From positions 5,370-69,369 of the forward strand of contig JBDSHF010000028.1 of the NCBI GenBank assembly GCA_039918595.1: DNA of 64,000 nucleotides. Direction: 5' to 3'. The number at the start of each line of letters is the position of its first letter. Positions within the stretch are counted from its first letter, which is position 1. The notes under the pieces are model-generated. The model was not told where the DNA came from. It did not search any database and worked only from the letters and a program-made list of their open reading frames with translations. Made by a program: the position numbers and the translations under genes. Positions 5,651-31,351 of the stretch are shown piece by piece. This stretch comes from Thermoanaerobaculia bacterium. Lineage in GTDB: Bacteria > Acidobacteriota > Thermoanaerobaculia > Multivoradales > UBA5704.

Positions 5651-5655
5651 CCGCT

Positions 5656-12500: not shown

Positions 12501-12662
12501 AGTGCAGCGCTTTGCCTTCGGACGGATACACGTCCGCCTTCGAGTCTTCATGGACTCCTCCTTTCGGTGGTTGCAGCGATTAAAGGAACTTATCTGGATG
12601 TCAGACTAGAGGAGGGAGTGCGGCCCACGAAGACGCACGAACCTGCCGGAGAGGTAACGCAC

Positions 12663-14668: not shown

Positions 14669-15280
14669 ACCATACAACTTTCACAAGCGGTGAAAAATCA
14701 CCGCAACCTGCCGCCGGATTTTTGGTTTGACTTAGAGAGCCAGGGCATCAGTGCGGCTGTCATTCACTCCCGCCTCATCGGGTGGGACGAGGAGCACGTG
14801 ACCATTCCGATCGTCTCGCGGGATCGGAAAGTTATCGGCTTCGAATATGCGACGTTTGATGAAAACGGCCGGCTGGTAACAATGCCGCAGGAAGGACCCG
14901 GACCATACCTCTATGGAGAGCCGGTCCTCAATGTCAACCCACAGGAGGTCGTTTTGACTGAGGGCGTAACGGAGTCCTTGATCCTCTCAAGCCACGGATT
15001 CAATGCGCTTTCGGCAACCGGCGACGGTCTTTCATTCCGCACCGAATGGGCGCCCGTCCTTCAGAAGGTCCCGAACGTCTTTCTCTGCTTCAAGCGCGCG
15101 AGCGAAAGCATTCAGGCGGCGCTCGGCATTCGCGAGCTGGTGCCGCACGTCCGGATCGTGACGCTTCCTCCCGAGGTCGGTCAGGGAGGCGGGCTCTACG
15201 AGTTCTTCGTGGAGCTTGAAGCGACGACGGAGGACTTTCGGCAGCTCCTCAAGCGAGCTGCCACTTCTTCCGATGCCTGA
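14669..15280 (+). CDS. Toprim-like (DnaG-primase-type) domain protein; the acidic DxD motif appears replaced.
   Basis: VVLTEGVTESLILSSHGFNALSATGDG...VFLCFKRASESIQAALGIRELVPHVRIVTLP parallels the Toprim consensus vivEGymD..l...G..n.va.lGT...vvl.fDgDeaG, but with KRA at the DxD position. Confidence 0.55.
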   Translation, partial: TIQLSQAVKNHRNLPPDFWFDLESQGISAAVIHSRLIGWDEEHVTIPIVSRDRKVIGFEYATFDENGRLVTMPQEGPGPYLYGEPVLNVNPQEVVLTEGVTESLILSSHGFNALSATGDGLSFRTEWAPVLQKVPNVFLCFKRASESIQAALGIRELVPHVRIVTLPPEVGQGGGLYEFFVELEATTEDFRQLLKRAATSSDA

Positions 15281-16652
15281 TCCTCGCCCAGAGAAGAAGC
15301 AGTTCCGGCCGGTCGTGTCCTTGACCCTGCCTACCGGTGAAATGCTCGAAACGGTATTCGACCCCGCCGCTCCGGCGACGGGGTTTATTGTGTTCGATGG
15401 CAAGAAGTGGAGAAGCGAGCGAAAGGTGGAGCTTCCGGGAGGTGTGACCCTTGTCCCGTACTCGGCAGAGAACAACCTCATCACGCATCGCGTAGTCCTG
15501 TTTCCTTCCGCGCCAGAGGAATACGGCTCCGAGGAGGAGCTGTTCGCCGACGTGCGCTCCTTCATCCATCGCTACGTGGATCTCTCCGATGGCTTCGAGG
15601 AAGTTTCCACCGCATACGTGCTCTTCTCTTGGGTCTATGACGCCTTCAACGAGGTGCCGTACCTGCGCGTGCGCGGCGACTACGGCTCGGGCAAATCGCG
15701 CTTTCTCCTCACCGTGGGGTCCCTCTGCTACAAGCCGATCTTCGCCTCGGGCGCCTCGACGGTCTCTCCGATCTTCCGCATCCTCGACGCCGTGCAAGGG
15801 ACGCTTGTCGTGGATGAGGGAGACTTCCGGGCTTCGGACGAAAAGGCCGAAATCATCAAGATCTTGAACAACGGCAACGCCAAGGGCTTCCCGGTCCTCC
15901 GAAGCGAGCAGACACCCGCGAAGGAGTTCAACCCCCGGGCCTTTCACGTCTTCGGCCCTAAGCTCGTGGCGACGCGGAACCTCTTCGATGACCGGGCGCT
16001 TGAGAGCCGTTGCCTCTCCGAGGAGATGGGTACGCGGCCTCTGCGGCCCGACATCTCCATCAACCTGCCGGAAGCCTTCGAGGAAGAGGCCCGGACTCTC
16101 CGAAACAAGCTCCTCCTCTATCGGCTGCGGACACGGGCGAGCCGCCGGCCGCTTGCCGCTGCGCCTCCGGGGCTTGAGCCGCGCCTCTCGCAGATCCTCT
16201 TGCCGCTTCTCTCTACGGCACCCTCAGAGGAGACGCGAGCGCGCCTCCTCGCGCTTGCGAAACGCTCGGGAGAGGTCATCTCGACCGAGCGGGCCATGGC
16301 GATGGAGGCCGAGGTGCTCGCCATCCTCTACGAGCTGCGGGAGGAGAAGGTCCCGCTCGCGGTTATAGAGATCGCCCAGAGATTCGCGAAGCGCCACGCC
16401 GCCGAGTATGAGTACGCGGTGACGCCCCGCTGGATCGGATCGATTTTACGGAGGAAGCTCATGTTGAACCCCCAGAAGCGCGGGGGCACCTTCACCATCC
16501 CCGCATCCGAGTACCCGAAGCTCGCCCGCCTTTTCGAGAAATACAGCGTGGGGCGCCAGGACATCGGGGACATTGGGGATGTTCAACCGGGAGAGGAGCG
16601 CGATGGCACAAGCGCGGAATCACAAGAGTCCTCGGGCTCCGTGTCCCTGTAG
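15273..16652 (+). CDS. P-loop NTPase of mobile-element primase/helicase type (D5-N/DUF3631-like).
   Basis: Walker A GDYGSGKS and Walker-B-like LVVDEGD. Start trimmed to MPDPRPEKK. Directly follows the Toprim-like gene. Confidence 0.6.
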   Translation: MPDPRPEKKQFRPVVSLTLPTGEMLETVFDPAAPATGFIVFDGKKWRSERKVELPGGVTLVPYSAENNLITHRVVLFPSAPEEYGSEEELFADVRSFIHRYVDLSDGFEEVSTAYVLFSWVYDAFNEVPYLRVRGDYGSGKSRFLLTVGSLCYKPIFASGASTVSPIFRILDAVQGTLVVDEGDFRASDEKAEIIKILNNGNAKGFPVLRSEQTPAKEFNPRAFHVFGPKLVATRNLFDDRALESRCLSEEMGTRPLRPDISINLPEAFEEEARTLRNKLLLYRLRTRASRRPLAAAPPGLEPRLSQILLPLLSTAPSEETRARLLALAKRSGEVISTERAMAMEAEVLAILYELREEKVPLAVIEIAQRFAKRHAAEYEYAVTPRWIGSILRRKLMLNPQKRGGTFTIPASEYPKLARLFEKYSVGRQDIGDIGDVQPGEERDGTSAESQESSGSVSL

Positions 16653-16748
16653 AACGTCCCCAACGTCCTGATATGCCCTTGGAAAACCTGCCGACCCCGG
16701 CAGGTTATTGCGTCTTGTATTTGACATACTGTCAAGTATATTGCTGCG

Positions 16749-17108
16749 GTGGCTATGACATTCATACCATTACAGAACTATCTCCGTACCTACCGCAGGC
16801 GCAGTTTTCTCTCGCAGGACGAGGTTGCTTTCCTTTTGGGCGCAAAGACCGGGACACGGGTCACCCGCCATGAGGGAGCTAACCGGATTCCGAAGATGGA
16901 GACGGCGCTTGGCTACGAAGTGCTGTTCGGCGTTCCCTTGCGCGAACTGTTCGCAAGCGAGGCGCACAAGGTCGAAACCATTATCAGACAGCGTGTGCCC
17001 GAGCTGATCCGGGAGGTCGAGGAGAAGGGCGAAAGCAGAGAGAAGCTTTCCTTTCTCCGAAGCCTTTCCGAACGGCTCGCAAAGCATCATGAGAACACTT
17101 GCAATTGA
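16749..17108 (+). CDS. XRE-family HTH regulator.
   Basis: RRSFLSQDEVAFLLGAKTGTRVTRHEGANRIPKMETALGYEVLFGVPLRELF. Confidence 0.6.
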   Translation: MAMTFIPLQNYLRTYRRRSFLSQDEVAFLLGAKTGTRVTRHEGANRIPKMETALGYEVLFGVPLRELFASEAHKVETIIRQRVPELIREVEEKGESREKLSFLRSLSERLAKHHENTCN

Positions 17109-17571
17109 CCCTACTACGTCCGGCTTCGGCTTCGTGGTCCTCGAAGGAAGCGAGCGCCTGGTTGATTGGGGCCTCGGGCGACTGGAAAAGCCCGAGGATA
17201 CCCTCTTCCTGAAGCGGATCGAAAAGCTTCTTGACCGCGCAGCACCGCAGCTCCTTGTCCTTGAGGACATGGAGGACTCGCGCCGCGGCAAGAGGGCTAT
17301 CGCCTGGACGCGGCTTGCACAGATGTGCGCTGCGAAGCGCGGCATCAGGGTGGAGAGAATCGGCCGCGCGGAAGTGTCAGAGCGCTTTGCTTCCTCGGGA
17401 AAGTCGAGATGGGAGGTCGGCCTTGCGATCTCGCGCTTCTTCCCGGAGCTCGCCCCGAGCCTTCCGAAGAAACGGCGTATCTGGGAGAGCGAGGACCGGC
17501 GCATGACGATCTTCACGGCCGCCTCCTTTGCCTTGACCTTCCTGCGTCGAGCGGATCGAAGTAGAGAGTAG
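17089..17571 (+). CDS. RuvC/RNase-H-like fold protein (160 aa). Possible Holliday-junction-resolvase-like protein with partly degenerate catalytic residues.
   Basis: N-terminal LAIDPTTSGFGFVVLEG resembles the RuvC iLGIDPGsr.tGyav motif. LLVLEDMED supplies the second acidic residue. The C-terminal DxxD region is not evident. The start overlaps the upstream HTH gene by 20 nt. Confidence 0.45.
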   Translation: MRTLAIDPTTSGFGFVVLEGSERLVDWGLGRLEKPEDTLFLKRIEKLLDRAAPQLLVLEDMEDSRRGKRAIAWTRLAQMCAAKRGIRVERIGRAEVSERFASSGKSRWEVGLAISRFFPELAPSLPKKRRIWESEDRRMTIFTAASFALTFLRRADRSRE

Positions 17572-17675
17572 CTAGCCTAGCGGTAGGCAAATCAACATCA
17601 TGTCTTTACGGAGAGGACACGGCACAAAGCTCCTCGGGTAACCTACCGGGGAGCTTTGGCGTACCCGACAGATAC

Positions 17676-18890
17676 GTGCGTCTTTGGAAGACGGGAGGAG
17701 ACGGGCACGATACGCCGATGCAATCCGACAACGACATCACCTATTTTGCCCGCATTAATCACCGCAACAAGGGGACGCCTTTCGGCATCCGGAGAGCCGA
17801 CCGCCGCACCCACATGTACGTCATCGGGAAGACCGGCACCGGGAAGTCAACGCTCTTGAAAACCCTCGCACTCCACGACATAGAACACGGCGAAGGGCTT
17901 GCATTGTTCGATCCGCACGGGGATCTTGCGGAGGAGATCGTATCGCTCGTGCCTGCGAACAGACGCGCGGATCTCATCTACCTCAACGTGCCGGATCGTT
18001 CCTTCGTCTGGCACTTCAACCCCTTTGCCGGCATTCCGGAAGAGAAGCACGCTCTTGCGGTGGCGGGCATGGTCGAGGTGTTCAAGAAGCTTTGGCCGGA
18101 CGAATGGGGGCCGCGTCTGGAGCATCTCCTCCGAAACGTGGTCTTCACGCTCCTCGCGGCCGGGGGCAACTTGGGCGACGTGCCCCGCCTGCTGTCTGAC
18201 AAGGATTATAGGAACGCAGCGGTGCGCCGGGTTACGAATGGGATGGTCCGGGAGTTCTGGGAGAAGGAGTATGCCGGGTACTCGCCCGCCTTCCGGGCGG
18301 TGGTGACGGCGCCACTCCAGAACAAGCTCGGAGCGTTCCTCACGGACCCCTTGCTCCACTTGATCCTTACCGGCGAGCGCAGCTCCTTCGACCTCAGGCA
18401 GCTCATGGACGGGGGGAAGATCCTCATCGTCAACCTCGCCAAGGGAAGGATCGGGGAGGGGCCGGCAACGCTCCTGGGGTCGCTCCTGGTATCGCACCTC
18501 TCCCTGGCAGCGCTTGAGCGTGCGGACCGGCCCCAGGAGGAGCGGAGGGACTTCTACCTCTACCTGGACGAATTCCACACCTTCGCCACGCTGACGCTCG
18601 CCACCATGCTCTCTGAACTCCGGAAGTACCGGCTAAACCTCATCCTGGCCCACCAGTATCTCTCCCAGTTGGAGACGGAGATCCGGGATGCGGTCTTCGG
18701 GAACGTGGGGACATTCATCGCCTTCCGGGTGGGGGCCTTGGACGCGTCGACCGTTGCCCGGGAGCTGGCGCCGAAGTTCGAGGCGGAGGATCTCCTGTCC
18801 CTGCCGAACTTCTCTGTTTACCTGCGGCTCATGATCCGGGGGGAGCCGTCCAAGCCGTTTAGTGCTGTCAGTTGTGCACCACTGTCTTGA
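17676..18890 (+). CDS. P-loop ATPase of the FtsK/HerA/VirD4 (T4SS coupling-protein-like, DUF87/TraD) superfamily; no TM segment.
   Basis: HMYVIGKTGTGKSTLLKTLALHDIEHGEGLALFDPHGD Walker A. FYLYLDEFHTFAT Walker B. RKYRLNLILAHQYLSQL. Paralog of the ATPase domain of the ORF at 25642. Confidence 0.8.
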   Translation: MRLWKTGGDGHDTPMQSDNDITYFARINHRNKGTPFGIRRADRRTHMYVIGKTGTGKSTLLKTLALHDIEHGEGLALFDPHGDLAEEIVSLVPANRRADLIYLNVPDRSFVWHFNPFAGIPEEKHALAVAGMVEVFKKLWPDEWGPRLEHLLRNVVFTLLAAGGNLGDVPRLLSDKDYRNAAVRRVTNGMVREFWEKEYAGYSPAFRAVVTAPLQNKLGAFLTDPLLHLILTGERSSFDLRQLMDGGKILIVNLAKGRIGEGPATLLGSLLVSHLSLAALERADRPQEERRDFYLYLDEFHTFATLTLATMLSELRKYRLNLILAHQYLSQLETEIRDAVFGNVGTFIAFRVGALDASTVARELAPKFEAEDLLSLPNFSVYLRLMIRGEPSKPFSAVSCAPLS

Positions 18891-18919: not shown

Positions 18920-19879
18920 GCCATGGCTAAACAAATCGCGGCCCGCTCTCAGGTGACGAGTCCTCACAAGCGTGATTGGCCCTTGGCTATTATTGTATTG
19001 TTCTTTGTCTTTATTTCAGGTTTCACTTTGTCAGCTCAGCCCGCAAGGAAGACTCTGTACACGAGCCAAGATGCCAAAATCGACGAACTGAAGTGTTCAT
19101 CCAAAGACAAGATTTTTCTACCTATTCTTCCGAAAAAGTCAATTTACGGAAAGGTGATCGAACCTGAAGATGTCCTACGCTCGGCGCCTCCTTCGAATCT
19201 TGCAAGTGATGCGGATGAATCTAGGAATTTAGTAGGATATTCGGGACCCTATTACAACGTGGAGGAGCTGACTGGAAATGTCGCCGTGCTCGAAAGGACT
19301 TTATATAACTGGCCGACTAATAATTGGCATGTAACAGGGTTGCTTCGAAATCAAACATGCATGGACATTCGAGTCTCGTCCATAACCGCCCACCTTATCG
19401 GGCCAAGCGGTAAGGAAGTGCGCATTGAAACTGCTACCGTTCCTATTAGTGATTTGAGACCGGGTGAGCCGGCCCCTTTTGATCTAAGTTCTCCAATCCC
19501 AAGAGAGAACGTTGAGCGCGTGGAATGGCAGATTGGATACGCAACAACGACAGAATCGCCCGTTCGGACTTTCTCATTTCTGGTATATCAGTCACGCCAG
19601 ATCACAAGTTCCTCGTACCTGCTTTTCGGCAGTATCCAGAACCTAGGGAGTTCCAGTGCGAGGGGAACTCACATTGTGGCGGCCTGGCTAGATAGTAGCG
19701 GCAGGGTTCGCTATGTAGCATCACCTCTGATTCAACTGGCGACCGGTCCATTGAGTCGAAGAAATAAAATAAATTTGGTGGGCAACGATTTTGAAGATTT
19801 CGTCTTTTCCGCTAATGATCCGCTGCTAGCATCAACGTTGAGTCAGGCAAACGTCGCAATCTGGGGTGTTGCAAATTGA
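18920..19879 (+). CDS. Membrane-anchored (N-terminal TM) periplasmic protein, low GC.
   Basis: WPLAIIVLFFVFISGFTL TM anchor. Its stop overlaps the start of the giant ORF (TTGA). Confidence 0.55.
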   Translation, partial: AMAKQIAARSQVTSPHKRDWPLAIIVLFFVFISGFTLSAQPARKTLYTSQDAKIDELKCSSKDKIFLPILPKKSIYGKVIEPEDVLRSAPPSNLASDADESRNLVGYSGPYYNVEELTGNVAVLERTLYNWPTNNWHVTGLLRNQTCMDIRVSSITAHLIGPSGKEVRIETATVPISDLRPGEPAPFDLSSPIPRENVERVEWQIGYATTTESPVRTFSFLVYQSRQITSSSYLLFGSIQNLGSSSARGTHIVAAWLDSSGRVRYVASPLIQLATGPLSRRNKINLVGNDFEDFVFSANDPLLASTLSQANVAIWGVAN

Positions 19880-22800
19880 AATATTCAGCCTGGGCCTTAT
19901 CAGTGATCGTCCTAATTCTCTCGGGAGAAGGACAAGCGGCAGCGCATGACTTTGGCAGTATACCCTATGACGATGTGGTCTACGCGGCCCAAGTCTATAA
20001 TCAATGCAGGGATACTCTCCCGACTGACAAATTGGTTGCTTACATGCTCGCGCCGACATGGCGAGAATTAACCAATGGCAATACCAATCTAACGCCATCC
20101 CCTATGACATTGGGCAGAGGGGATAACGATTTGGATCTATATCCAGATGGTCAGTCCGGCGCAACTGCTCCGCACCGTCGCGCTTTTTGGCACCCGGGTA
20201 TTGGTCTCTGGCAACTCGATGATATCGGTCTTGGAAAAGACATTAGCACAGAGAAATTCAACTCAAGAGACGCGGCTCAGGTTGCAGCTACCATAATCTC
20301 AACTCGATATTGTAAATCGCCAACAGCTGCGTATATATATGGAGGTATCTGGATTGCTTGTGGGGCGGATGGGAGTCTTTGTCAGGATATTGTCAACCAA
20401 CTCTACAACCCTAATGGCCCTCCAGCGTATACAGTTGGTCGCGACAATAGTGTTGGTCGGTACGGTGGTTCGCAGTTGCATACGTGTAAACTAGCGGGCG
20501 ACACTAGGTATTTCGATTGCCTATATGTTAAGCCTGCCAACCCAGATGGAACACGAGCCAACGCCGAGGGTACTATATCAAGTTGGATTTACCAGCCATT
20601 AGAGGGTCTTTATCCCCCCAATACACCGTCTCCGCTAACAATGCCATTTTATGTCTATCGAGAGGATGCAACTGGAGGGGGATTCGAGTGGCGATATTGG
20701 CTAGCTGCTGATACAGGCTTCGGAAAAGATTATGCTGCTAGACGAACCTATGGCGCCAACTCTCGGGCAGGTCTCCATTGGGTTTCAGATGCGTCAACCA
20801 GCTTAGCTCTCTGTGATGTTACCCTTACACGCGGTGCCTGTGGAGGTATTCCCCAGGCACCTTCGATATCCAACATAGCACAGCTATCGTACGACGGGTC
20901 GCCACTTTCAGTCGGCGCTATTACACAAGCTGGAACCGTTATACTCCGAGGTACACTTGCTGGTTCTCAGGGTCAACAAGTACGAATTGAGCTAGAGGTT
21001 CGGAGAATCTCTGACCCGTTCTTAGGTGAACCGAATTACCTTGGAAACTACGTCACCAGTGGGAGCGTAAGCAAGTGTGTCACGGGACTGCAAGACGCCA
21101 AATATCATTGGCAGGCACGAGTGAGGAGCGATAGTGGACAGTTCAGTCAATGGCTTCAGTTCGGGGGAAACTCTGAAGCCAGTCCTGATTTCGAGGTACA
21201 GGCTAATAGATGTGCTATTTGCACTGCGTCTGGCGCATCTGCTGTGGTCACAAAGTATGGCCGTATTGGAATATCCTGTGGCGTACCCCTGGCTGTAGAA
21301 CTTGCAGCGTCTGTCAACAATGGTATTACCCTGCTTAATGGTGTAAGTCTGACGGCATCGGTGAGTGGTTCGGAAACCGGCACTATAAATTACACGTTTT
21401 ATTGTAATCGTCCCGATGGAGGAATTGATGTTAGATCTGGATGGATTGCCAAGTACGATGGGATTTCGGCGAATCCGAAAACAGCATATGACGTATGTGA
21501 CTATGTTGGGCCGGGTATTTATACTGCAAAGGTGATCGCTGAGCGTGGATCAAGCGCAGCTGAATCACGGACACTCATCACCGTTTCGGCACCTTCAACG
21601 CAAACTCCTTCGGTTACAACGAGTGGCTCGGCAAATGTGACCCAAAGTAGTGCGACTCTCAGTTTATCTGTTAATCCAAACGGGTCTGATACTTCAGCCT
21701 GGTTTGATTGGGGGACGAGCACCTCCTTCTGCTGTAACACGAGTCAGCAGACAGTCGCGGCTAGTTCGGGAGCGTCACTGCTTAGTATGACCGTAGGCGC
21801 CCTTCAATGCGACACAACCTACTACTTCCGAGCCCACGCACAAAGTGTAGGCGGAGAAGCCACAGGAAGCACCTTGTCATTCCGAACGGGTGCATGTGGC
21901 AACGGCCCCCAAACCGTTCAACTTGTGCCTGATCCAGGCTTCGAGCAAGGAAACAATGCGTGGTGGGTAGCGAGCCCAGCGTTCTATATCGATCATGCTC
22001 CCACCTTCCCGAATCCGCGCAATGGAAGTTACTACGCTTTCCTTTCCACGTCCAACGGCTCGGCGGGCAACAATTTGCAGGGCGGCGTGATATCGCCCCA
22101 AGTCACCATTCCTTCAAACGCAAGCGGAGCTGAACTGCGCTTCTGGTATAGCGTTTCGACACAGGAGACGAGTACATCAATCTTTGATACCCTCAAGGCT
22201 TACCTAGTTAAGCCGGGGAATCAAGCGACACTCTTTGCAACCATCTCAAACTTGGACAATTCTGGCACAACGTATAGAGAGAAGGTTGTCGGCATTCCCT
22301 CCTCATTTTTCGGCGGCCCGGTGCAGATCTTTTTCTCTGGCGCAACAGACGGTAGCTTGCCTACCGTCTTCCGCGTAGACGATGTGACGCTTTCTGCCTT
22401 CATCCCTGCGACGGCCGGTTCGCCTGTCGTTAGCACGGGGTCTGTTGACCAAATTACCTCGTCTAGCGGACGGCTCAGCATGACTGTCAACCCCAACGGT
22501 GCCGACACTCAGGTGTGGTTTGATATAGAAACGAACAATCCGCCGAACTCTGAGACAGAGCACGTAGCTATAGGAACCGGGCAGCAGGCCGAGGGCGTTA
22601 GCATTAGTGTATTCGGCTTGCGATGCGACACGACCTACTACTATCGGGCTGATGCCGTCAATTCGTACGGATCACAGCTAGGCTCTGTGAGTTCTTTTAG
22701 AACCAGTACTTGTCCCGTTCAAGCCCCCTCAGTATCAACCACTGTTGCTGACAGTATAACGTCCACCTCTGCGCGTTTGGTTGGGAGCGTCAATCCAAAC

Positions 22801-24789
22801 GGCTTCTCAACAACGGTTTGGTTCGCTTGGGGAACCGATACGACGCTCGGAAATTCTACGCCTAGCCAGAACGTCGGCAGTGGTAATTCTTCAGTGAGCT
22901 TCGCGGCTACACTCAATAACCTTCAGTGCGGCACTACCTACTACTACCGTGCCAAGGGGCAGAACAGCGGCGGGCAGACATCCGGTGCGCTCTACAACGT
23001 AACAACTTCCCCTTGCAGCCAAATACCCGTTATAACGATAACGGCAAGCGATCCGACTGCGACTGAAAATCCCATGACTACGGGGGAGTTTCTCATCCAG
23101 CGAACAGGAGATCTTTCTAGTGCGTTATCGGTGGCATACACCGTGGGAGGAACCGCCATCGTTGGGGTAGATCACACGCTTGGAGGCGGGAGCGTGACCA
23201 TCCCCTCTGGATCAGCCTCGACTACTTTGACCGTCTTTCCGATCGACGATTCACTGGTCGAACCAGATGAGACCGTCGTTGTGACGCTTCAGCCGCAGTC
23301 CCAATATACAGTTGGTACCCCAAGCGGTGCCACTGTTACAATTACGAGTGATGATACGGGATGTGCCTTAAGTGTCATAAGGCCGCAAGGTGGAGAGGTG
23401 TGGACAAAAGGATCACCTCATACCGTTCAGTGGAGTGCGAACTCTGATTGCGTGGACTTTGCCTTTATTCTATACAGAAATGGTAACTTTGATGGCTACC
23501 TGACAGGTTCTCTGTCCGGGAGCCAATTTAGCTGGACACCTCCGGCGTGGCTCGTACCAAGTCCCGGGCTGCAGATTGATGTTGTAGGATTCAACGCTGA
23601 TGGCACTGGTGTTTCGGCGCGTTCAAACAACTTTACGCTTATCAACCCTGCGGTCCTTCCCGCAGTCATATTCCAGGACACTGTAGAGACTAACGATGAG
23701 TTCAACTACTACTCCGAAGGATGGGGAGTGACAAATTTCACCTCGCACAGCCCCACGCATTCGCGCGCGGATAGTCCTGCTTTCTACGGCAACAACACGA
23801 ACAGCTCACTTATAACACCTAAAATCGATGTTAGTAGCCGCACCTCCCTCTCTCTCAGCTTCTGGCATCGCTTTAGTCTTGCGGACTTCGACTTCGTGAA
23901 CGTCTGGGTTAAGACCGATCAAGGAGATTGGATCTTCTTGCAGGGCTTTACCGGAATCCAATCTGACTGGCGACAGGTCACAATTAACCTGAACGCTTTC
24001 CTTGGCCAACCGTCTGTTCAGGTCGCTTTTCAGATAGTATCTGATGATGCTCTGACTGCCGATGGCTGGTATATCGACGACATCGTATTGAGTGGGGCGA
24101 GTGACACTAATAAAATTTTCTCTAATGGTTTTGAGTCCGGTGATCTTTCGGCATGGTTGGTGGCGCCGCCGAGCGACGGAAGCATCGTTTCTGTTTTGGA
24201 GCAGGGTGTCCCAGGGCAACCCGGAAAGGATATTTGGACAACGAGCAACTATTCATTTGCGCCGGGCGGCAACACGCCGGGAGGTGGGTTGGACAACGAA
24301 GAGCTTGTAGTAGGAGGATGGGGCGACAATTACTACAGCCTCCTTGAGTTCAATCTCGCAGGGCTTCCAAGTCACGCATCCTCGGCAGTGCTCAAGCTCT
24401 TTTGCTACCGGACTCGTGCTACCGAAACGATTGGCATGTATGTCGAGCGTATAACCCAGATATGGGATTGGCGTACCCAAGGCACCGGCCGAGATAGGGA
24501 GAGGTTATGGTGGGCAGACCAACCGCAGTCACTCAATTGGATAGGCTTGCCGGTCACGAAGCCGACGGTAGGGCAGTGGTACTCAATCGACATCACGGAT
24601 CTCTATAACGCATGGCAGAACGGATCTGTGCCAAACTACGGCATCAAGCTCACACCGGTTGATAATGGTAACGAGTGGAGCGAGTTTTACAGCGCAAACT
24701 ACTCTGATCCGGCCTTCCGGCCTCGGCTCGTAATTCGGCCGGATCAATCTACCGTTAAACGTTCTCCTCTATCTAGGAAGCCACGGTAG
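19876..24789 (+). CDS. Giant secreted multidomain surface protein (1637 aa): signal peptide, three or more Fn3-like repeats, a Calx-beta domain, a Kre9/KNH-like Ser/Thr-rich domain, two MAM/ConA-like domains and a C-terminal DNRLRE-like domain.
   Basis: TTG start coupled to the upstream gene. Signal peptide MKYSAWALSVIVLILSGEGQAAA. Repeated VNPNG.DT..WF.WGT...TTYY(F/Y)RA units. Calx-beta segment ITASDPTATENPMTTGEFLIQRTG...DETVVVTLQP. Two ...(V/I)DD(V/I)VL motifs typical of MAM domains. C-terminal DNEELVVGGWGDNYYSLLEFNLAGLP. GC is lower than the host. Confidence 0.8.
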   Translation: MKYSAWALSVIVLILSGEGQAAAHDFGSIPYDDVVYAAQVYNQCRDTLPTDKLVAYMLAPTWRELTNGNTNLTPSPMTLGRGDNDLDLYPDGQSGATAPHRRAFWHPGIGLWQLDDIGLGKDISTEKFNSRDAAQVAATIISTRYCKSPTAAYIYGGIWIACGADGSLCQDIVNQLYNPNGPPAYTVGRDNSVGRYGGSQLHTCKLAGDTRYFDCLYVKPANPDGTRANAEGTISSWIYQPLEGLYPPNTPSPLTMPFYVYREDATGGGFEWRYWLAADTGFGKDYAARRTYGANSRAGLHWVSDASTSLALCDVTLTRGACGGIPQAPSISNIAQLSYDGSPLSVGAITQAGTVILRGTLAGSQGQQVRIELEVRRISDPFLGEPNYLGNYVTSGSVSKCVTGLQDAKYHWQARVRSDSGQFSQWLQFGGNSEASPDFEVQANRCAICTASGASAVVTKYGRIGISCGVPLAVELAASVNNGITLLNGVSLTASVSGSETGTINYTFYCNRPDGGIDVRSGWIAKYDGISANPKTAYDVCDYVGPGIYTAKVIAERGSSAAESRTLITVSAPSTQTPSVTTSGSANVTQSSATLSLSVNPNGSDTSAWFDWGTSTSFCCNTSQQTVAASSGASLLSMTVGALQCDTTYYFRAHAQSVGGEATGSTLSFRTGACGNGPQTVQLVPDPGFEQGNNAWWVASPAFYIDHAPTFPNPRNGSYYAFLSTSNGSAGNNLQGGVISPQVTIPSNASGAELRFWYSVSTQETSTSIFDTLKAYLVKPGNQATLFATISNLDNSGTTYREKVVGIPSSFFGGPVQIFFSGATDGSLPTVFRVDDVTLSAFIPATAGSPVVSTGSVDQITSSSGRLSMTVNPNGADTQVWFDIETNNPPNSETEHVAIGTGQQAEGVSISVFGLRCDTTYYYRADAVNSYGSQLGSVSSFRTSTCPVQAPSVSTTVADSITSTSARLVGSVNPNGFSTTVWFAWGTDTTLGNSTPSQNVGSGNSSVSFAATLNNLQCGTTYYYRAKGQNSGGQTSGALYNVTTSPCSQIPVITITASDPTATENPMTTGEFLIQRTGDLSSALSVAYTVGGTAIVGVDHTLGGGSVTIPSGSASTTLTVFPIDDSLVEPDETVVVTLQPQSQYTVGTPSGATVTITSDDTGCALSVIRPQGGEVWTKGSPHTVQWSANSDCVDFAFILYRNGNFDGYLTGSLSGSQFSWTPPAWLVPSPGLQIDVVGFNADGTGVSARSNNFTLINPAVLPAVIFQDTVETNDEFNYYSEGWGVTNFTSHSPTHSRADSPAFYGNNTNSSLITPKIDVSSRTSLSLSFWHRFSLADFDFVNVWVKTDQGDWIFLQGFTGIQSDWRQVTINLNAFLGQPSVQVAFQIVSDDALTADGWYIDDIVLSGASDTNKIFSNGFESGDLSAWLVAPPSDGSIVSVLEQGVPGQPGKDIWTTSNYSFAPGGNTPGGGLDNEELVVGGWGDNYYSLLEFNLAGLPSHASSAVLKLFCYRTRATETIGMYVERITQIWDWRTQGTGRDRERLWWADQPQSLNWIGLPVTKPTVGQWYSIDITDLYNAWQNGSVPNYGIKLTPVDNGNEWSEFYSANYSDPAFRPRLVIRPDQSTVKRSPLSRKPR

Positions 24790-24792
24790 GAT

Positions 24793-25635
24793 GTGCTACC
24801 TGGATTGACTGATAAGGAACGGCAAGAGTATGTTCTAAAGTCAAATCTCGATGTCGCAGAATGTAAATTCCTCTATTTGAACTCTCTCCCGGGTCTTGCT
24901 AGTCTCATTCGTACCAACCGAAGTACGGAGGATCCCCGCATGCCCCGACACTCTGACGGAGTAGTGCTGTCCAACTGGCATACCCTCTTCGAGGACTTCT
25001 CGACCTCGACCCAGGACTTCTATGCCGCTGTTGAAGCCGCGATTGCAGACCGGAACCTCCCAGACATCAAACTCTCCCGCGTCTTCTTCAGTGAGGGCGG
25101 CATCGGTTCCGCCAAGCGCGAATACCTCCGCATCGAGCGCCAGCGGATCGTCTTCGACATCTGCTCCGCGCCATACGGCAAGGGGCACTTCTTCTCCTGG
25201 TGGCTTGCCAAGATCCCAGCGAAGTATGGTCTTTTCATCGTTCTCGGTATTGCCCTCGGATGTCTTCCACTCTGTCTCATCTTCCTTGGCATCCTCTTGA
25301 AAATCTTCGAGGGCTCCCTCTTCGGCATGGTCGTCCTTCCCTTCATCTCCCTCCTCGTCATCCCGGCGATCTTCCTTCTCCTCGGTCTCGGCGTCGAGCG
25401 AGGGCTCATCGGCGACGAGGAATGGGTCCTCTCCATCCCCTGGGTCGGATACCTGTACTACGTAGTCTTCAACCCTGTCTCATACTACCGCCTCGACACC
25501 GCCATGATGTTCCGCGACTCGATACGCTCGGCCGTGAACGAGGTCTTGAACGACCTGCGGGAAGAGAAGGGCCTGCGGCTCCTCGGGGACGAGGAACTCC
25601 GGCCCGACGCCGACGAGGGAGAGGCCACGGCGTAG
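24793..25635 (+). CDS. Integral membrane protein (cytoplasmic N-terminal domain plus 2-3 TM helices).
   Basis: Hydrophobic helices LFIVLGIALGCLPLCLIFLGILL and MVVLPFISLLVIPAIFLLLGLGV. Lies 4 nt after the giant ORF. Confidence 0.6.
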   Translation: MLPGLTDKERQEYVLKSNLDVAECKFLYLNSLPGLASLIRTNRSTEDPRMPRHSDGVVLSNWHTLFEDFSTSTQDFYAAVEAAIADRNLPDIKLSRVFFSEGGIGSAKREYLRIERQRIVFDICSAPYGKGHFFSWWLAKIPAKYGLFIVLGIALGCLPLCLIFLGILLKIFEGSLFGMVVLPFISLLVIPAIFLLLGLGVERGLIGDEEWVLSIPWVGYLYYVVFNPVSYYRLDTAMMFRDSIRSAVNEVLNDLREEKGLRLLGDEELRPDADEGEATA

Positions 25636-25641
25636 CGGGGT

Positions 25642-28600
25642 ATGGCGAGCCGGGTTGAGGAGCGCACCCACCATTTCTTCCGGTGGGAACGGCGGGGCCG
25701 CGGACGGCGGAGCTTCCTGTCTCCCGTCTCGCTTGAGCCGCCCTTCACTCCCTTTTGGTTCGTGAAACATGCCGCGCCCGCCCTCGATGACGGCAGGCAT
25801 CACACCTTCTTGTCAGCCTTCCTCGAACGGTTCTCTGGTAAGCGGGAGGCGCCGCCACCTGAGCCCGAGATCGAAGAGCCGGAGGCGGAACCCGGAGACG
25901 AGGGGGAGCCTGTCGAGCTACGGGTCCTCCTGCCGCAGGAGCTTTCCGTCACGGCGGCGCTCTCCGAAGGCTTCCTCAAGAGCCTTGCGGCCGTCCATAC
26001 GCCGCTCTCGCTGGAACTGGTCGGCATAGGCGGAGAGGTGGCGGTTTCCCTCACCAGCCGCAGGACGGCGGTGCCGATCCTCTCCTCCCAACTGCGGGCC
26101 TTCTTCCCGGAGGTACGCCTGGAGGAGGAAGAAGATCTCCTCCTCACTGCCTGGGAGTCGGGAGTGGAGGGTGTCTTCGGCGCCGTCGAGCTTGGCCTGT
26201 CCCGCGAGTTCATGCTACCCCTCGGCCGTCCGCGAAACTTCACGCCCGATCCCTTGACCGCGATCGTGGGAGCGCTTGCGGAGACTGCGCCCGGCGAGGT
26301 TGTCATCGTCCAGGTGCTCTTTCAGGGAGTGCGGTCGCCGTGGGCGGAGAACATCGTGCGGTCGGTGACCACACCCTCCGGCGAGCCCTTCTTCGCTGAC
26401 GCTCCCGAGGTCACCAAGCTTGCCCGCGAGAAAGTATCCGCACCGCTCTTCGCCGTTGCCGTTCGCGTCGTGGCGCGGGGAGCAACCGAGGAGCGGCTGT
26501 GGACGCTTCTCTCGGGTAGCCTTGGCGCGCTCGTGGGCGCAACGAGAGGTGACAACGAACTTGTGCCGCTCGGGACGGATGACAGTACCGAGATCTTGGG
26601 AGACGTGCTCCTGCGCAGGACCCACCGGAGCGGCTTTCTCCTCTCGCTTCCCGAGCTGCTTCCCCTGGTTCACCTTCCGTCGCCCTCGATCCCCGGCATC
26701 GCCCGGGACACCGGCCGCACCAAGCTCCTCCCCGAGGAGGCACAGGAAGGCGGGCTCTTCCTCGGGTACAACGTCCATGCGGGAAGGGAGCGCGAGGCGC
26801 GGCTCTCGACGGACGCGCGCCTCCGCCACGTGCATGTCGTGGGGGCTTCGGGCACCGGCAAGTCAACGCTTCTGGTGTCCATGATCCTCCAGGACATTGC
26901 CGCCGGGCACGGCGTGGGCGTCATCGACCCGCACGGCGATCTCATCGACCACGTGCTCGGCGGGATTCCTGAAAACCGAGCGGCGGACGTAATCCTCTTT
27001 GACCCGGCCGACCCGGAGCATGTCGTCGGCTGGAACATACTCTCCGCGCACTCCGAAGCAGAGAAAGACATGCTCTCCTCGGACCTCGTTGCGGTCTTCC
27101 GCAGGCTTTCGACCTCCTGGGGCGACCAGATGACGGCGGTCCTTGCGGGCGCGATTCTCGCCTTCCTGGAGTCAGAGCGGGGCGGCACGCTCCTCGATCT
27201 GCGGCGGTTCCTCGTGGACCAGGGCTTCCGGCGGGAGTTTCTCGCCACCGTCCGCGACGAGTATGCCCGAGACTTCTGGACGAGAGAGTTTCCGGTGCTC
27301 AAGGGCTCGCCTCAGGCGTCGATCGTGACCCGGCTCGATACGCTTCTCCGGGGCAAGCTCGTGCGCGGGGTGGTGACGGCCAGAGACAAGCCCCTGGACT
27401 TCCGGGGAGTGGTGGACGACCGGCGGATCTTCCTGGCGAAGCTCTCGCAGGGTGCCATCGGCGAGGAGAACGCTGCGCTCCTGGGGTCGCTTCTCGTCTC
27501 GAAGATCCACCAAGTATGCCTTCTGCGGCAGGATCAGGCCGAGGGTTCGCGCCGGCCGTTCTTCCTCTACCTCGACGAGTTCCACAACCTCGCGACGCCC
27601 TCCATGGCGACGCTCTTCTCCGGGGCGCGCAAGTACCGCCTCGGGGTGACCGTCGCGCATCAGGATCTCTACCAGCTCCACGCCTCCGTTCCCGAAGTCG
27701 AACGGGCCGTCCTCGGGAACGCATACACCCGGATCTGCTTCCGCCTCGGCGACGAGGACGCCCGGACCTTATCTGCGGGCTTCTCCTTCTTCACGGCAGA
27801 CGACCTCGGGAACCTCGACACCGGAAGAGCGATCTGCCGGGTGGGCAGGAAGGAGCACGACTTCAACCTCTCCGTCGTGCCGATGGAGCATGGAGACCCT
27901 GAGGCGCATGAAGCGAGGCGCCGGGATGTCCGGGCGCGGTCGCTTGCGAGGTGGGGCGCGCCGCGCTCTGCGGAGCCGCCGGCGGCTCCCGCACCTCCCG
28001 AGAGGCCACGAGCGGAAGCACCGCCACGAGTCGAAGTGCCACTGGCGCAGCCGCAACCCAAACGAGAGACAGCCCCGCCGCCTTCGGCTCCGCCCCCTCT
28101 ACCCGCACAGGTGCAAGCTCCCGAGCCACCTCCGGTCGAACCGCGCCGCCCGGGCAAAGGCGGGCCGGAGCACACGTATCTCCAGGAACTCATCAAGCGG
28201 TGGGGAGAGGAGAAGGGCTTCCGGGCAGTGGTCGAGGAGCAGATTGCGGGCGGCAGGGAAAGCATAGACATCGCCCTCTACCGGGGCGACCTCAAGATCG
28301 CCTGCGAGGTCTCGGTCACGACGCCTCTTGAATATGAGGTCGGGAACGTGGAGAAGTGCCTTGCGGCCGGATTCGGGACGGTGGCGGTCGTGTCTCTCAA
28401 GAAGGCCCGACTCGCGAAGCTCGGAAAGCTCCTCGACGAAGCCATTCCTTCCGAGAGCCGGGCCAAGGTCCACCTATTCACGACGGAGGAGTTGCTCTCA
28501 TGGCTTGAGGGGCAGCCGGTCCACGAGGAGGTGAAAACTGTCAGGGGATGGAAGGTCAAGGTCAAGTACCGCGATCCGGGAGATGACCGCATGAAGCGCG

Positions 28601-28650
28601 TCGCCGAGATCCTGGCCCGGAGTACGAGCGGGCTAGAGAAGGATGGGTAG
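25642..28650 (+). CDS. Large FtsK/HerA/VirD4-like P-loop ATPase (1002 aa) with an N-terminal domain of unknown function, a Pro-rich linker and a C-terminal PD-(D/E)xK/Mrr-Hjc-like nuclease-fold domain.
   Basis: HVHVVGASGTGKSTLLVSMILQDIAAGHGVGVIDPHGD Walker A. FFLYLDEFHNLAT Walker B. RKYRLGVTVAHQDLYQL. Linker PPAAPAPPERPRAEAPP...PPPLPAQVQAPEPPPVEP. C-terminal GEEKGFRAVVEEQIAGGRESIDIALYRGDLKIACEVSVTT fits an E...D...E(V)S restriction-endonuclease-like core. Confidence 0.8.
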   Translation: MASRVEERTHHFFRWERRGRGRRSFLSPVSLEPPFTPFWFVKHAAPALDDGRHHTFLSAFLERFSGKREAPPPEPEIEEPEAEPGDEGEPVELRVLLPQELSVTAALSEGFLKSLAAVHTPLSLELVGIGGEVAVSLTSRRTAVPILSSQLRAFFPEVRLEEEEDLLLTAWESGVEGVFGAVELGLSREFMLPLGRPRNFTPDPLTAIVGALAETAPGEVVIVQVLFQGVRSPWAENIVRSVTTPSGEPFFADAPEVTKLAREKVSAPLFAVAVRVVARGATEERLWTLLSGSLGALVGATRGDNELVPLGTDDSTEILGDVLLRRTHRSGFLLSLPELLPLVHLPSPSIPGIARDTGRTKLLPEEAQEGGLFLGYNVHAGREREARLSTDARLRHVHVVGASGTGKSTLLVSMILQDIAAGHGVGVIDPHGDLIDHVLGGIPENRAADVILFDPADPEHVVGWNILSAHSEAEKDMLSSDLVAVFRRLSTSWGDQMTAVLAGAILAFLESERGGTLLDLRRFLVDQGFRREFLATVRDEYARDFWTREFPVLKGSPQASIVTRLDTLLRGKLVRGVVTARDKPLDFRGVVDDRRIFLAKLSQGAIGEENAALLGSLLVSKIHQVCLLRQDQAEGSRRPFFLYLDEFHNLATPSMATLFSGARKYRLGVTVAHQDLYQLHASVPEVERAVLGNAYTRICFRLGDEDARTLSAGFSFFTADDLGNLDTGRAICRVGRKEHDFNLSVVPMEHGDPEAHEARRRDVRARSLARWGAPRSAEPPAAPAPPERPRAEAPPRVEVPLAQPQPKRETAPPPSAPPPLPAQVQAPEPPPVEPRRPGKGGPEHTYLQELIKRWGEEKGFRAVVEEQIAGGRESIDIALYRGDLKIACEVSVTTPLEYEVGNVEKCLAAGFGTVAVVSLKKARLAKLGKLLDEAIPSESRAKVHLFTTEELLSWLEGQPVHEEVKTVRGWKVKVKYRDPGDDRMKRVAEILARSTSGLEKDG

Positions 28651-28791
28651 GTAGGTACTCTCCGGCGCCGCATCCCGCCACAGGGGCACCTTGTGGCGTC
28701 TTTCCGGCTACCATCGGCGCGCGTACGGTGGGCGAAGAGTGTTCTTCACACCTTCAACCCTCCGCGAGAGCGGATCTCTTTGGAGACAAGG

Positions 28792-30375
28792 ATGATGCGT
28801 CCCCGAACCCCTAACAGCGAAGGCAAACGGGTGGGGCTCTGGATCAGAGTCTCGACCGAAGACCAAGCACGGGGCGAGAGTCCCGAGCACCACGAAGCGC
28901 GCGCCCGGATGTATGCCGAGAGCAAGGACTGGACCGTCATAACGGTCTACCACCTCGAAGGCGTGTCAGGGAAGTCGGTCATGCAGCACCCCGAGGCACA
29001 GCGGATGCTTGCCGATGTCAGGCAAGGGTCGATCTCCGGCCTCATCTTCTCCAAGCTCGGCCGCCTAGCCCGGAACACGACCGAGCTACTGGAGTTTGCC
29101 GCGATCTTCGAGCAGCACGGTGCCGACCTCATTTCCCTCGGCGAGTCGATCGACACCTCCACTCCCGCCGGCCGTCTCTTCTACACCTTGATCGCCGCCA
29201 TGGCGACCTGGGAGCGAGAGGAGATCGCCTCTCGGGTCGCGGCTTCCGTGCCTATCCGGGCCAAGCTCGGGAAGAAGCTCGGCGGAGCCGCCCCCTACGG
29301 CTACGCCTGGAAGGACGGCAAGCTCGCCCCTGAAGAGAAAGAGGCGCCTGTCCGGAAGCTCATGTATGAACTCTTCCGACAGACCAAGCGCGTGCGGACG
29401 GTTGCCCGGCTCTTGAACGAGCAAGGATACCGGACCCGAAACGGAAGCCTCTTCACCCATGTCACGGTGCGGCGCCTCATCCTCGACCCCACCGCTAAGG
29501 GGGTACGCCGCGCCAACTACACCAAGAGCCTGGGTGACGGGAAGAAGTGGAAGCTCAAGCCCGAAAGCGAATGGGTAGAGCTGCCAGTCCCCCCGATCGT
29601 GGACGAAGCGGTCTGGGAATCGTGCGCCTCGATCCTCCGGGAGAGGGCGAACGGCCGCAAGCCCGGTCCCCGGACAGTCCACCTCTTCACTGGCGTTGTC
29701 TTCTGCCATTGTGGGCGGAAGATGTACGTGCCCTCGAACAACCCTAAGTGGATCTGCCAGGGGTGCCACAACAAGATCCCCATTCCGGACCTTGAGGCCG
29801 TCTTCGAAGAACGGCTTCAGGCGCTCGTCTTCTCCCCTGAGCAGTTTGACGTCCACCTTCGGGAAACAGAGGCGACGATCGAGGCAAAGCGGGAGGAGCT
29901 GGCAGTGCTACTGCGGGAAGAAGACTCCGTAAAGGCTGAGTCCGACAAGCTCTACCGCCTCTACCTCGAAGGGGGCCTCCCGGTCCCGGCCTTTCGGGAA
30001 AGGAACGATCCTCTGGAGGAGCGGAAAGAGCAACTGCGGCTCCAGATTCCCCGGCTCAAGGGAGAGATAGACTTCCTCGTGATACGGCAGCTCGGAAGTA
30101 CAGAGACTCTTGTCGAGGCCCAGACCCTCTACGAGAAGTGGGCGATCCTCTCCTTCGGGATCAAGCGGGAGATCGTCGAAACCATCGTGGAGCGGATCGA
30201 CGTCGGGGTGGGCGATGTCGAGATCACCCTCTCTTGCGACATACCCGAGCCCCCCGACTTCCCCCTTTCCCCTGAACTCATGGCAGAAGGGGAACGAATC
30301 TCCAGGGATTCATCGCGGCGAGCAGGGAAAACCGGGCCGGGAAGACCAGCCGGGCGCGGGCCCGCACGACGCTGA
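28792..30375 (+). CDS. Large serine recombinase (integrase) at the element's right end. The last ~25 codons and the stop lie in comM-derived host DNA.
   Basis: [12 protein letters not shown] catalytic serine motif, recombinase domain and zinc ribbon [21 protein letters not shown]. Start trimmed to MMRPRT. The ORF runs across the junction at ~30298. Confidence 0.85.
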
Positions 30376-31351
30376 CGTTCCCCTCTTCGAGCGGCTGGCG
30401 CAGGGCTTCCAGGGTGTCGCGCCGGAATTCCGGGAGCTCGTCGAGGAAGAGGACGCCGTTGTGGGCCAGGCTCGCCTCGCCCGGCCGCGGGTTGCTGCCG
30501 CCGCCGATCATCCCCGCCGTGCTGGTCCCGGTGTGCGGGCTGCGGAACGGCCGCTGGCGCAGCAGCCCCGCCGGCGGCTCCTCGGCCACCAGGGAGTGGA
30601 CCTTGGTGACCGCGATCGACTCCGCCAGGGTGAGCGGCGGCAGGATCCCCGGCAGGCGGCGGGCGAGCATGGTCTTCCCTGAGCCTGGAGGCCCGAGGAA
30701 GAGGAGGTTGTGGCCGCCGGCCGCGGCCACCTCCAGAGCCCGTTTCGCCATCTCCTGCCCCCGCACCTCGGAGAGGTCGGGCGCCCCCATCAGCAACTCA
30801 ATGGAAAAGGGGGGAGCCGGGACGGCCGGCAGCTCCGCCTCACCCGTAAGGTGCTGGACGGCCTCGGCAAGCCCCCGGAGACCGAAGACCGGGACGGCTT
30901 CGAGGGCAGCCGCCTCGGCGGCGTTGGCCGCCGGCAGCAGGACCTCGCGGACTCCCATGCGGCGCCCGAGGTCGGCGATGGCCAGACCGCCGCGCACGGA
31001 GCGGATGGCGCCGTCGAGCCCCAGCTCGCCGCAGATCAGCCGCCCGGCGAGGGCGTCCTGCGGGATCTGCTCGTAGGCCGCGAGCATCGCCAGGGCAATG
31101 GCGAGGTCGAGGTGGTTGCCCTCCTTGCGGAGGTCGGCCGGCGCGAGATTGATGATGATGGACTTGGGTTCCAGGTCGAAGCCGCAGTTTTTGATCGCGG
31201 CGCGCACCCGCTCGCGGCTCTCGCGGACCGCGGCATCGGCAAGTCCCACGATCTGAATCTGCGGGAGTCCGTTCTGGACGTCGACCTCTACCTGGACGGG
31301 GCGTGCTTCGATCCCCCATGGCGTGGCGGTGGTGGCTCTGGCTAGCATCAA
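30298..31351 (-). pseudogene. comM: comM/yifB (Mg-chelatase-like competence ATPase), 3'-truncated by the island insertion.
   Basis: N-terminal Lon-like domain plus AAA domain [21 protein letters not shown]. Identity to the family ends after ...[11 protein letters not shown], where CPCG is expected; the reading frame instead runs into island sequence (WRFVPLLP*). Confidence 0.8.

Follow-up and report, generated by a model that had tools for sequence, protein, structure and literature searches.

A conjugation-related ATPase tethered to a predicted restriction-endonuclease-fold domain in a putative comM-inserted integrative element

Ring translocases that carry a DNA-recognition or DNA-cutting domain of their own are known: the gamma domain of FtsK acts at KOPS and the C-terminal winged helix-turn-helix (wHTH) of Streptomyces TraB acts at clt, the domain concerned having a wHTH fold in FtsK and TraB and an RNase H-like fold in the large terminase of phages. 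To our knowledge, few routes of horizontal transfer are known for the Acidobacteriota and other soil phyla, and we know of almost no experimentally characterised gene-transfer system in the Acidobacteriota, Planctomycetota or Gemmatimonadota. Relaxases of the MOB_C family (TraX of pAD1 and MobC of CloDF13) are related to PD-(D/E)xK enzymes and work with a coupling protein (PMC12857230). Here we analyse a gene of a Thermoanaerobaculia bacterium (Acidobacteriota) in which a conjugation-related ATPase and a C-terminal domain (the tail) with a predicted restriction-endonuclease fold are joined by a Pro-rich linker. The gene lies at 25642..28650 on the + strand of a stretch of 64,000 nucleotides, hereafter the window, to which all coordinates refer (contig JBDSHF010000028.1 of assembly GCA_039918595.1, positions 5,370 to 69,369 of the forward strand). 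Its best reading is that of a core gene of an element resembling integrative and conjugative elements (ICE-like), inserted by a large serine recombinase (LSR) in the host gene comM/yifB, and we tentatively favour the view that the tail is a DNA-capturing, probably nicking or cleaving, domain tethered to the element's transfer motor.

An earlier note, made from the letters of the window, had described a large ATPase followed by a Pro-rich linker and a C-terminal module. This observation was confirmed, and both peptides quoted in that note were found in the translation of the open reading frame (ORF), which encodes 1002 amino acids (aa). The protein begins with an alpha/beta domain (aa ~1-370, 25642..26751), to which Pfam assigns DUF8128 (PF26449) in homologues (P0056 and its relatives) and which aligns, together with the ATPase, with TrwK/VirB4. 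This is followed by a P-loop ATPase core (aa ~387-735, 26800..27846), delimited by Pfam, NCBIfam (all matches below cut-off) and Foldseek, with the Walker A motif GASGTGKS at aa 401-408 (26842-26865) and, within the core, a Walker B-like LYLDEF near aa 642-647. The last conserved ATPase elements (...CRVGRKEHDFNL...) lead into a segment, recognised from the model and from variants of the gene, that comprises a conserved strand (DFNL, aa 740-743) and a basic helix (aa 736-775 in all, 27847..27966, ending ...RRRDVRARSLARWG; the helix spans 753-771 in the full-length AlphaFold 2 (AF2) model). Next comes the linker (aa 776-834, 27967..28143), and then the tail module of 168 aa (aa 835-1002, 28144-28647 from the translation), made up of a restriction-endonuclease-fold core (aa 835-960, 28144..28521), defined by AF2, Foldseek and conservation, and a C-terminal beta-hairpin (VRGWKVKVKY) plus helix (KRVAEILARS) at 28522..28647, for which model confidence was low. 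The full-length AF2 model, built on 63 homologues, had a mean predicted local distance difference test (pLDDT) score of 81.7.

The fusion of ATPase and tail is real. More than 100 homologues of ~1000 aa cover the whole query at 46-93% identity, in addition to one protein that is 100% identical, and the full-length homologues with an annotated source come from Thermoanaerobaculia/Acidobacteriota, Planctomycetes and Gemmatimonadota. Uninterrupted fused ORFs were seen at six loci of related metagenome-assembled genomes (MAGs). Using a profile of the tail we recovered 80 metagenome loci, 51 of which had enough upstream DNA to be informative; in 45 of these 51 a single ORF encodes the tail and, ahead of it, 700 or more residues, ATPase homology included. 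Homologues of the ATPase, which the earlier note had proposed to check for the tail, thus carry it both in these loci and in the full-length proteins. The family is large: a search of 1.84 billion representative proteins with the tail profile returned 2,644 clusters (50% identity) at E ≤ 1e-3, the tail being almost always C-terminal among the 150 matches listed, and the homologues of the ATPase number at least 3,800. Some doubt came from one related locus at which ATPase and tail appeared as separate, overlapping genes. The idea that the tail is a separate small gene, to which a tail-only search with 55 matches, all of 92-280 aa, had given rise, was rejected as an artefact, because the short matches are explained by cuts at contig ends (the tail ORFs of L001 and L005 are open to the contig edge) and by frameshifts (in L002 and L003 the reading frame breaks precisely at ...RKRSL|RWG..., the assembly being error-prone).

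The two folded parts are joined by a segment that fits a flexible tether, since it is disordered in the model and varies in length and sequence among homologues. Over its 59 aa the linker is composed of 39% Pro, 19% Ala and 12% Glu; residues 778-838 had pLDDT values below 50 and no secondary structure in the full-length AF2 model, in which both flanks were confidently folded. The last ATPase motif (DFNL) and GKGG (aa 838), with which the tail motifs begin, are some 94 residues apart, and across 96 homologues the spacing from DFNL to GxGG ranged from 71 to 110 aa with a median of 21% Pro, neither sequence nor length being conserved among relatives. The Pro/Ala/Glu-rich tract of the earlier note, its composition and its predicted flexibility therefore stand; its length of ~90 aa does not, being 59 aa by the boundaries used here.

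To what fold does the tail belong? An AF2 model of the tail built on a 38-sequence alignment had pLDDT values above 90 over tail residues ~10-125, and its core has the topology alpha-beta-beta-beta-alpha-beta (helix 8-23, strands 27-33, 40-47 and 50-56, helix 62-74 and strand 79-83, in tail numbering). The whole tail is modelled as alpha1-beta1-beta2-beta3-alpha2-beta4-alpha3-beta5-alpha4, followed by the low-confidence hairpin and helix. When this model was compared with the PDB using Foldseek, almost all of the best matches were PD-(D/E)xK proteins, among them AF1548 (1Y88), the small subunit of R.BspD6I, the R2 retrotransposon protein, EcoT38I, Can2, Bax1, PaqCI and Cas4, with probabilities mostly of 0.9-1.0, E-values from ~2e-3 upward and template-modelling (TM) scores of ~0.45; in BFVD, most of the named matches were PD-(D/E)xK, Mrr, restriction-endonuclease or endonuclease-like proteins. 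By sequence the relationship is not visible: a single tail sequence had zero Pfam matches even at E ≤ 10, nuclease families included; each of the 38 members of the tail family, searched against Pfam, gave only sub-threshold matches to Uma2 (3 members, E=0.011) and CoiA_nuc; and neither phmmer nor a profile hmmsearch of the PDB found a significant match to a solved structure. These models argue that the tail is a restriction-endonuclease-fold (PD-(D/E)xK-like) domain of a family for which Pfam has no model. The general fold proposed in the earlier note is thus borne out by structure prediction and Foldseek. Its narrower assignment to Mrr-cat/Hjc is unsupported, because neither Pfam model matched the tail at E ≤ 10 and the lysine of (D/E)xK is replaced by S/T/A; no Hjc appeared in the top 50 PDB matches. 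A tblastn search of phage records with the tail gave nothing significant. In a plasmid collection there was one match, an 86-aa hypothetical protein (L019) encoded at 485495-485755 of pNVE500, a haloarchaeal megaplasmid of Natrinema versiforme, which is 41% identical over tail residues 3-82.

We assessed conservation in an alignment of the window protein with 112 full-length homologues at 46-100% identity. Seven polar residues, H844 (28171), E865 (28234), D876 (28267), E889 (28306), E899 (28336), N902 (28345) and K905 (28354), were each kept in 111-112 of the 113 sequences, well in excess of what chance would give, and the tail's polar residues were also retained in a set of 63 sequences at 46-89% identity; the acidic residues which the earlier note expected to be conserved are accordingly near-invariant (E865, D876, E889 and E899). 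Viewed on the AF2 model together with the alignment, D876 opens beta-2 and E889 closes beta-3, the places at which this fold canonically has its catalytic residues, while the canonical lysine position of beta-3 (S891 in the window) is occupied by S/T/A and an invariant E-x-x-N-x-x-K lies on helix alpha-2 after beta-3. The motif read from the alignment, H...E...D...E-x-[STA]...E-x-x-N-x-x-K, is non-canonical, and in the model K905 on the following helix may stand in for the missing lysine. We take the E-V-x-S plus helix-lysine pattern to resemble that of the Uma2/DUF820 family, the datum to set beside this assumption being the sub-threshold Uma2 match of three members.

We then considered the ATPase. 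Pfam matches are confined to the central part of the protein, aa 387-711, with TrwB_AAD_bind, T4SS-DNA_transf, TraG-D_C and DUF87, the matches to PF10412, PF02534 and PF12696 exceeding their cut-offs. The N-terminal residues 88-340 are confidently folded in the full-length AF2 model, and when the full model was searched with Foldseek, TrwK/VirB4 of R388 aligned over ~800 columns, N-terminal domain included (E ~3e-14), TrwB gave TM(target) values of 0.61-0.66 (about 0.64), and the TrwK/VirB4, TrwB and HerA groups matched at E-values of 1e-14 to 1e-12. Scores against the NCBIfam conjugation models lie far below their cut-offs: the best VirD4-like model, conju_CD1115, gave 50.4 bits against a cut-off of 250, TraD models 23-45 bits against 366-647, and the VirB4 profile TIGR00929 18.5 bits against 643. 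For this reason we regard the ATPase as belonging to the radiation of conjugative ATPases, in which it is divergent and falls outside the curated families; by analogy with its structural relatives it is presumably hexameric. No transmembrane helix was found in the 1002-aa protein, whose top 19-residue hydropathy mean (1.62) lies in the P-loop region, with none at the N-terminus. A candidate membrane anchor for this soluble ATPase is instead encoded in the same operon, 6 nt upstream, by a gene for a 280-aa protein (24793..25635, + strand), which is hydrophobic over ~147-200 (19-mer peaks with mean hydropathy of 2.0-2.9 starting at aa 147, 163 and 179) and a homologue of which immediately precedes the ATPase in the majority of related loci.

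Downstream of the ATPase-tail gene lies an LSR with the Pfam domains Resolvase, Recombinase and Zn_ribbon_recom (28693..30375, + strand; the ORF is open from 28693, with a likely start at ATG 28792 preceded by GGAG), which is CcrB/XisF-like by NCBIfam at scores below cut-off. Between the stop codon of the tail and this likely start, a spacer of 141 nt (28651-28791) contains an imperfect hairpin, GCCACAGGGGCACCTTGTGGC, and a terminator-like stem at 28761-28774, just before the ribosome-binding site of the LSR. Beyond it, on the - strand, is a truncated comM/yifB gene for a Mg-chelatase-like AAA ATPase (30278..31351; TIGR00368 positions 6-347 of 499), whose homology to E. coli YifB ends at residue 346, at nt 30305. 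Acidobacteriota, Planctomycetes and Gemmatimonadota together supply 14 loci in which YifB homology ends at residue 346, as it does in the window (345 in L008; junction loci: L001, L008, L016, L017, L033-L035, L038, L039, L042, L051, L059, L061, L083 and L094). Since this end is constant, the serine recombinases share one precise target in comM; the junction is the signature of site-specific insertion, and the truncated comM is the host side of the element's right junction. The 3' fragment of comM, which would mark the element's left end, was not found in the window, and the element is therefore more than 30 kb long and extends past the left edge. In five loci (L031, L041, L052, L082 and L084) a C-terminal fragment of comM (from residue ~343-359) follows the ATPase and shares its strand, which points to a further orientation of insertion or a further lineage. 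GC content shifts between the left part and the host flank, from 50-62% at 1-26 kb to 63-71% beyond.

The block of membrane protein, ATPase-tail and LSR recurs in Acidobacteriota MAGs, in one MAG each of Planctomycetes and Gemmatimonadota, and on a contig of 7.7 Mb; in these last three (L016-L018) the stop of the ATPase overlaps the start of the LSR. In the Planctomycetes and Gemmatimonadota MAGs the block is again followed by a truncated comM, and in L018 the coupling occurs at a different target gene. A second TrwB/type IV coupling protein (T4CP)-like ATPase, a paralogue of 404 aa recognised by Pfam, PADLOC and NCBIfam (17676..18890, + strand), accompanies the ATPase in the window and in most relatives.

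This setting bears on the claim of the earlier note that an ATPase translocase tethered to a nuclease is a defence layout rather than that of a coupling protein. An anti-phage or anti-plasmid effector, in which a HerA-like translocase would deliver the nuclease to invading DNA, finds some backing in PADLOC matches to mad8 (E=1.8e-20) and, weakly, to HerA models, in the presence of HerA/Sir2 and HerA/NurA complexes among the structural matches, and in the defence-type genes (GmrSD, a type IIG-like methyltransferase, a DUF1156 methylase and CHAT) found downstream at loci that lack the LSR. However, the PADLOC matches belong to the two ATPases themselves, that to mad8 being confined to the P-loop core; the 16 neighbouring ORFs scanned yielded no further MADS or defence component and no match to a defence-system model; and the ATPase is nearest, both in sequence and in structure, to ATPases of conjugative type IV secretion systems (T4SS), TrwB and TrwK/VirB4. 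Moreover, in three phyla the gene sits beside the LSR where elements inserted in comM have their integrase end, as part of a conserved core to which the membrane protein, the paralogous ATPase and the LSR also belong, while the defence genes vary as cargo does. We therefore depart from the earlier note on this point and consider a defence role quite improbable.

As well as being fused to the ATPase, the tail behaves as an autonomous cassette. In L006 only the equivalent of nt 28126-28628 is shared (~500 bp at 90% nucleotide identity), as an ORF of its own (L006:1408-2016) behind an unrelated gene for a tetratricopeptide repeat (TPR)-like protein, with unrelated flanks on both sides; in another protein, P0005, a Pro-rich linker and the tail seem to have been joined to the C-terminal end of the same TPR-like protein. 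L004 retains the last ~45 residues of the ATPase, the linker and the tail, adjoining an LSR, and at L024:~5500-6501 an excisionase-type helix-turn-helix domain, HTH_17, replaces the ATPase, giving HTH_17, basic helix, linker and tail directly upstream of an LSR. The basic helix thus stays with the tail in both of these ATPase-less forms. On an IMG/VR contig (L101:2824-3180) the tail follows RHS/YD repeats in frame and is followed by an LSR, and in P0033, P0035, P0037 and P0040 an excisionase-type HTH_17 domain takes the place of the C-terminal hairpin and helix. In a distant branch (L013, 9998-13408; L014; L015) the ATPase is 52-58% identical and the tail is longer, running from the linker through a wHTH-like segment and a homologous nuclease-fold domain with an E-I-E motif to HTH_17, and retaining GRGGxxH...D...IEIE...ENxxKD; the ATPase of L015 appears to be interrupted by an insertion. 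Because the tail recurs with DNA-binding domains and recombinases, this association points to DNA as its ligand. Breaks in homology recur near window ~27833-27841 (aa 731-734, ...CRVGRKEH...): the contig of L001 begins at window nt 27839 and that of L005 two codons earlier, and the homology of L004 begins at 27837, upstream of which are unrelated phage-like genes (thyA, HMUDK). The breakpoint near 27837 showed neither an att-like repeat nor any similarity to the comM junction, only a weak 5-bp palindrome, CTGCC-GGGT-GGCAG.

The LSR that adjoins the tail in the window and in 13 related loci (L001, L002, L004, L005, L007-L012 and L016-L018) raises the possibility that tail and basic helix are an accessory of the recombinase, binding it or its att sites and controlling excision versus integration, with the fusion to the ATPase being secondary. 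Such a role would accord with the overlapping stop and start codons of L016-L018 and with the retention of tail and LSR in the absence of the ATPase in L004, L024 and L101. It is harder to reconcile with the rest of the family: an LSR lay within 3 kb downstream in only 14 of the 38 loci with at least 2.5 kb of downstream sequence, the others having variable cargo (CHAT, methyltransferases, GmrSD), so that a strict coupling of tail and LSR was rejected as a universal feature; the distant branch L013-L015 has the domain and no serine recombinase within 10 kb; and it is the ATPase that is the tail's constant partner, as the fused loci described above demonstrate. We consider this role improbable.

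Taking the ATPase as partner and DNA as the likely ligand, we infer a nuclease activity, a DNA target and a coupling to transfer, as follows. After excision, the tail would engage the DNA of the element at a specific site and nick or cleave it, using a metal site formed by D876 and E889 (with E865 and E899) and K905 from helix alpha-2 in place of the beta-3 lysine. The DNA so cut or held would then serve the ATPase ring as substrate for export from the cell, with the co-transcribed 280-aa protein docking the ring to the membrane. Such an arrangement would amount to a relaxase plus coupling protein, or a terminase-like 'cut and pump' device, on one polypeptide. Several observations weigh against this proposal. 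The canonical beta-3 lysine is absent, the E-values and TM-scores of the structural matches to the tail are modest, neither a relaxase nor T4SS channel genes were recognised among the ~35 ORFs scanned in the window, which stops short of the element's left end (many of these ORFs had no family match), a search for repeated DNA motifs that might mark a target site near the gene found nothing convincing, and a search of the literature, as far as we could find, returned no report that transfer of such elements has ever been observed.

Because the canonical lysine is missing, the domain could instead be a non-catalytic DNA- or protein-binding module, for example a DNA-recognition anchor in which the nuclease fold binds a specific sequence or structure of the element and loads or orients the ATPase without cutting, in the manner of FtsK gamma or the TraB wHTH. 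The DNA-binding domains that flank or extend the module (wHTH-like and HTH_17 in L013-L015, HTH_17 in P0033, P0035, P0037 and P0040) are in keeping with an anchor, as is P0176, an ATPase-less protein comprising HTH_17 and two tandem tails, which has lost several of the conserved residues, so that the fold can evidently persist without them. Yet the near-invariance of D, E, E, N, K and H at canonical catalytic positions, at identities as low as 46%, exceeds what a binding surface usually needs, and E-x-[S/T] combined with a lysine on the helix that follows looks like a catalytic variant already known, for which the data offer a weak Uma2 match (3 members, E=0.011). On balance we regard an anchor that does not cut as unlikely and tentatively favour the proposal of a DNA-capturing, probably cutting, tail. 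A broader extension of that proposal, that the tail replaces a conventional relaxase and that the gene is the engine of widespread, undescribed, comM-targeting and LSR-driven conjugative-like elements in Acidobacteriota, Planctomycetota and Gemmatimonadota, appears doubtful.

Turning to the remainder of the element, the gene directly left of the membrane protein (19876-24789, + strand) encodes a secreted protein of 1637 aa with a signal-peptide-like N-terminus and MAM, Calx-beta, CBM96 and PhoD_N/Pur_ac_phosph_N-like Ig domains; it has 52-nt internal repeats at 21782, 22598 and 22901 and the lowest GC content of the window (50-53%), and in related elements the protein is variable or replaced. 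An FxLYD protein with one transmembrane segment is also encoded left of the ATPase. Further to the left are a second LSR of 538 aa (Resolvase, Recombinase and Zn ribbon; 12710-14326, - strand), ~22% identical to that at 28693-30375 and found at the same relative position in L007, a primase-like protein of 246 aa (phrog_47; 14540-15280, +), a P-loop protein of 478 aa recognised by its GSGKS motif (15216-16652, +), a 160-aa ORF starting MRTLAIDPTTSGFGFVVLEG that is RuvC-like by eye (17089-17571, +), and an ArdC-N-like protein of 275 aa (10977-11804, -). Taken together, the RuvC-like, primase-like, P-loop and ArdC-N-like genes suggest a module for replication and anti-restriction such as conjugative elements typically carry. 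A 20-nt motif, AAGACGCACGAACCTGCCGG, occurs with two inverted copies (85-90% complementary) at 12630-12649, 16697-16716 and 17665-17684; all three copies are intergenic, the last lying just upstream of the start of the 404-aa ATPase, and the motif could be an operator or a transfer-related site.

The components of this system, a PD-(D/E)xK fold, a T4SS-type ATPase and an LSR element in comM, are each of a known kind. In a search of the literature we did not find a description of the fused architecture, of the unnamed domain family with its non-canonical motif, or of the element family of soil phyla. The gene marks a large family whose examined members lie in integrative elements, many of them at one exact position of comM. 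If the tail does cut or capture the DNA of its element for its own motor, it would represent a new solution to the relaxase and coupling-protein problem, and would also offer a handle for finding and testing such elements; whatever its mechanism, the tail is a well-defined domain family that could enter domain databases.

How, then, does the gene compare with systems already described? Like the T4CPs (TrwB/VirD4/TraD) and VirB4 (TrwK), its ATPase has a P-loop core of the FtsK/HerA/VirB4/VirD4 superfamily and is encoded by an integrative element. Unlike the T4CPs, it has no N-terminal transmembrane anchor, with a separate membrane protein encoded upstream instead, and unlike both T4CPs and VirB4 it bears a C-terminal nuclease-fold domain on a Pro-rich leash, an addition that our literature search did not find described for either; a further difference from T4CP/VirB4 systems is that scans of the window recognised no T4SS channel genes or relaxase. 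Compared with generic PD-(D/E)xK proteins (AF1548/1Y88, the R.BspD6I small subunit, Can2, Bax1 and Mrr-like phage proteins), the tail shares the predicted core fold, the Asp of beta-2 and the Glu of beta-3, but it is only 9-18% identical and has no match at the level of hidden Markov models, it has S/T/A for the beta-3 lysine and E-x-x-N-x-x-K on alpha-2, and it adds an N-terminal GxGGxxH motif and the C-terminal hairpin and helix.

HerA-nuclease assemblies (HerA-NurA in repair; HerA-Sir2, HerA-DUF4297 and mad8 in defence) likewise combine a HerA-superfamily ATPase with a nuclease or effector, but there the partners are separate proteins and not cores of mobile elements. MADS, for instance, is an operon of eight genes (bioRxiv 10.1101/2023.03.30.534895), and no partner gene of HerA-nuclease or MADS systems was present among the 16 neighbouring ORFs scanned. 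The MOB_C relaxases, where a PD-(D/E)xK-related enzyme processes DNA for conjugative transfer beside a T4CP-type ATPase, offer the nearest functional parallel to the mechanism proposed here; they are separate relaxases, whereas in the window protein the nuclease-fold domain is fused to the ATPase, and the likeness drawn is a functional analogy. Finally, by analogy with FtsK gamma, TraB and the phage terminase, the protein would join a translocase to a C-terminal DNA domain behind a linker, an arrangement that appears to be shared among them even though the folds of the domains differ.

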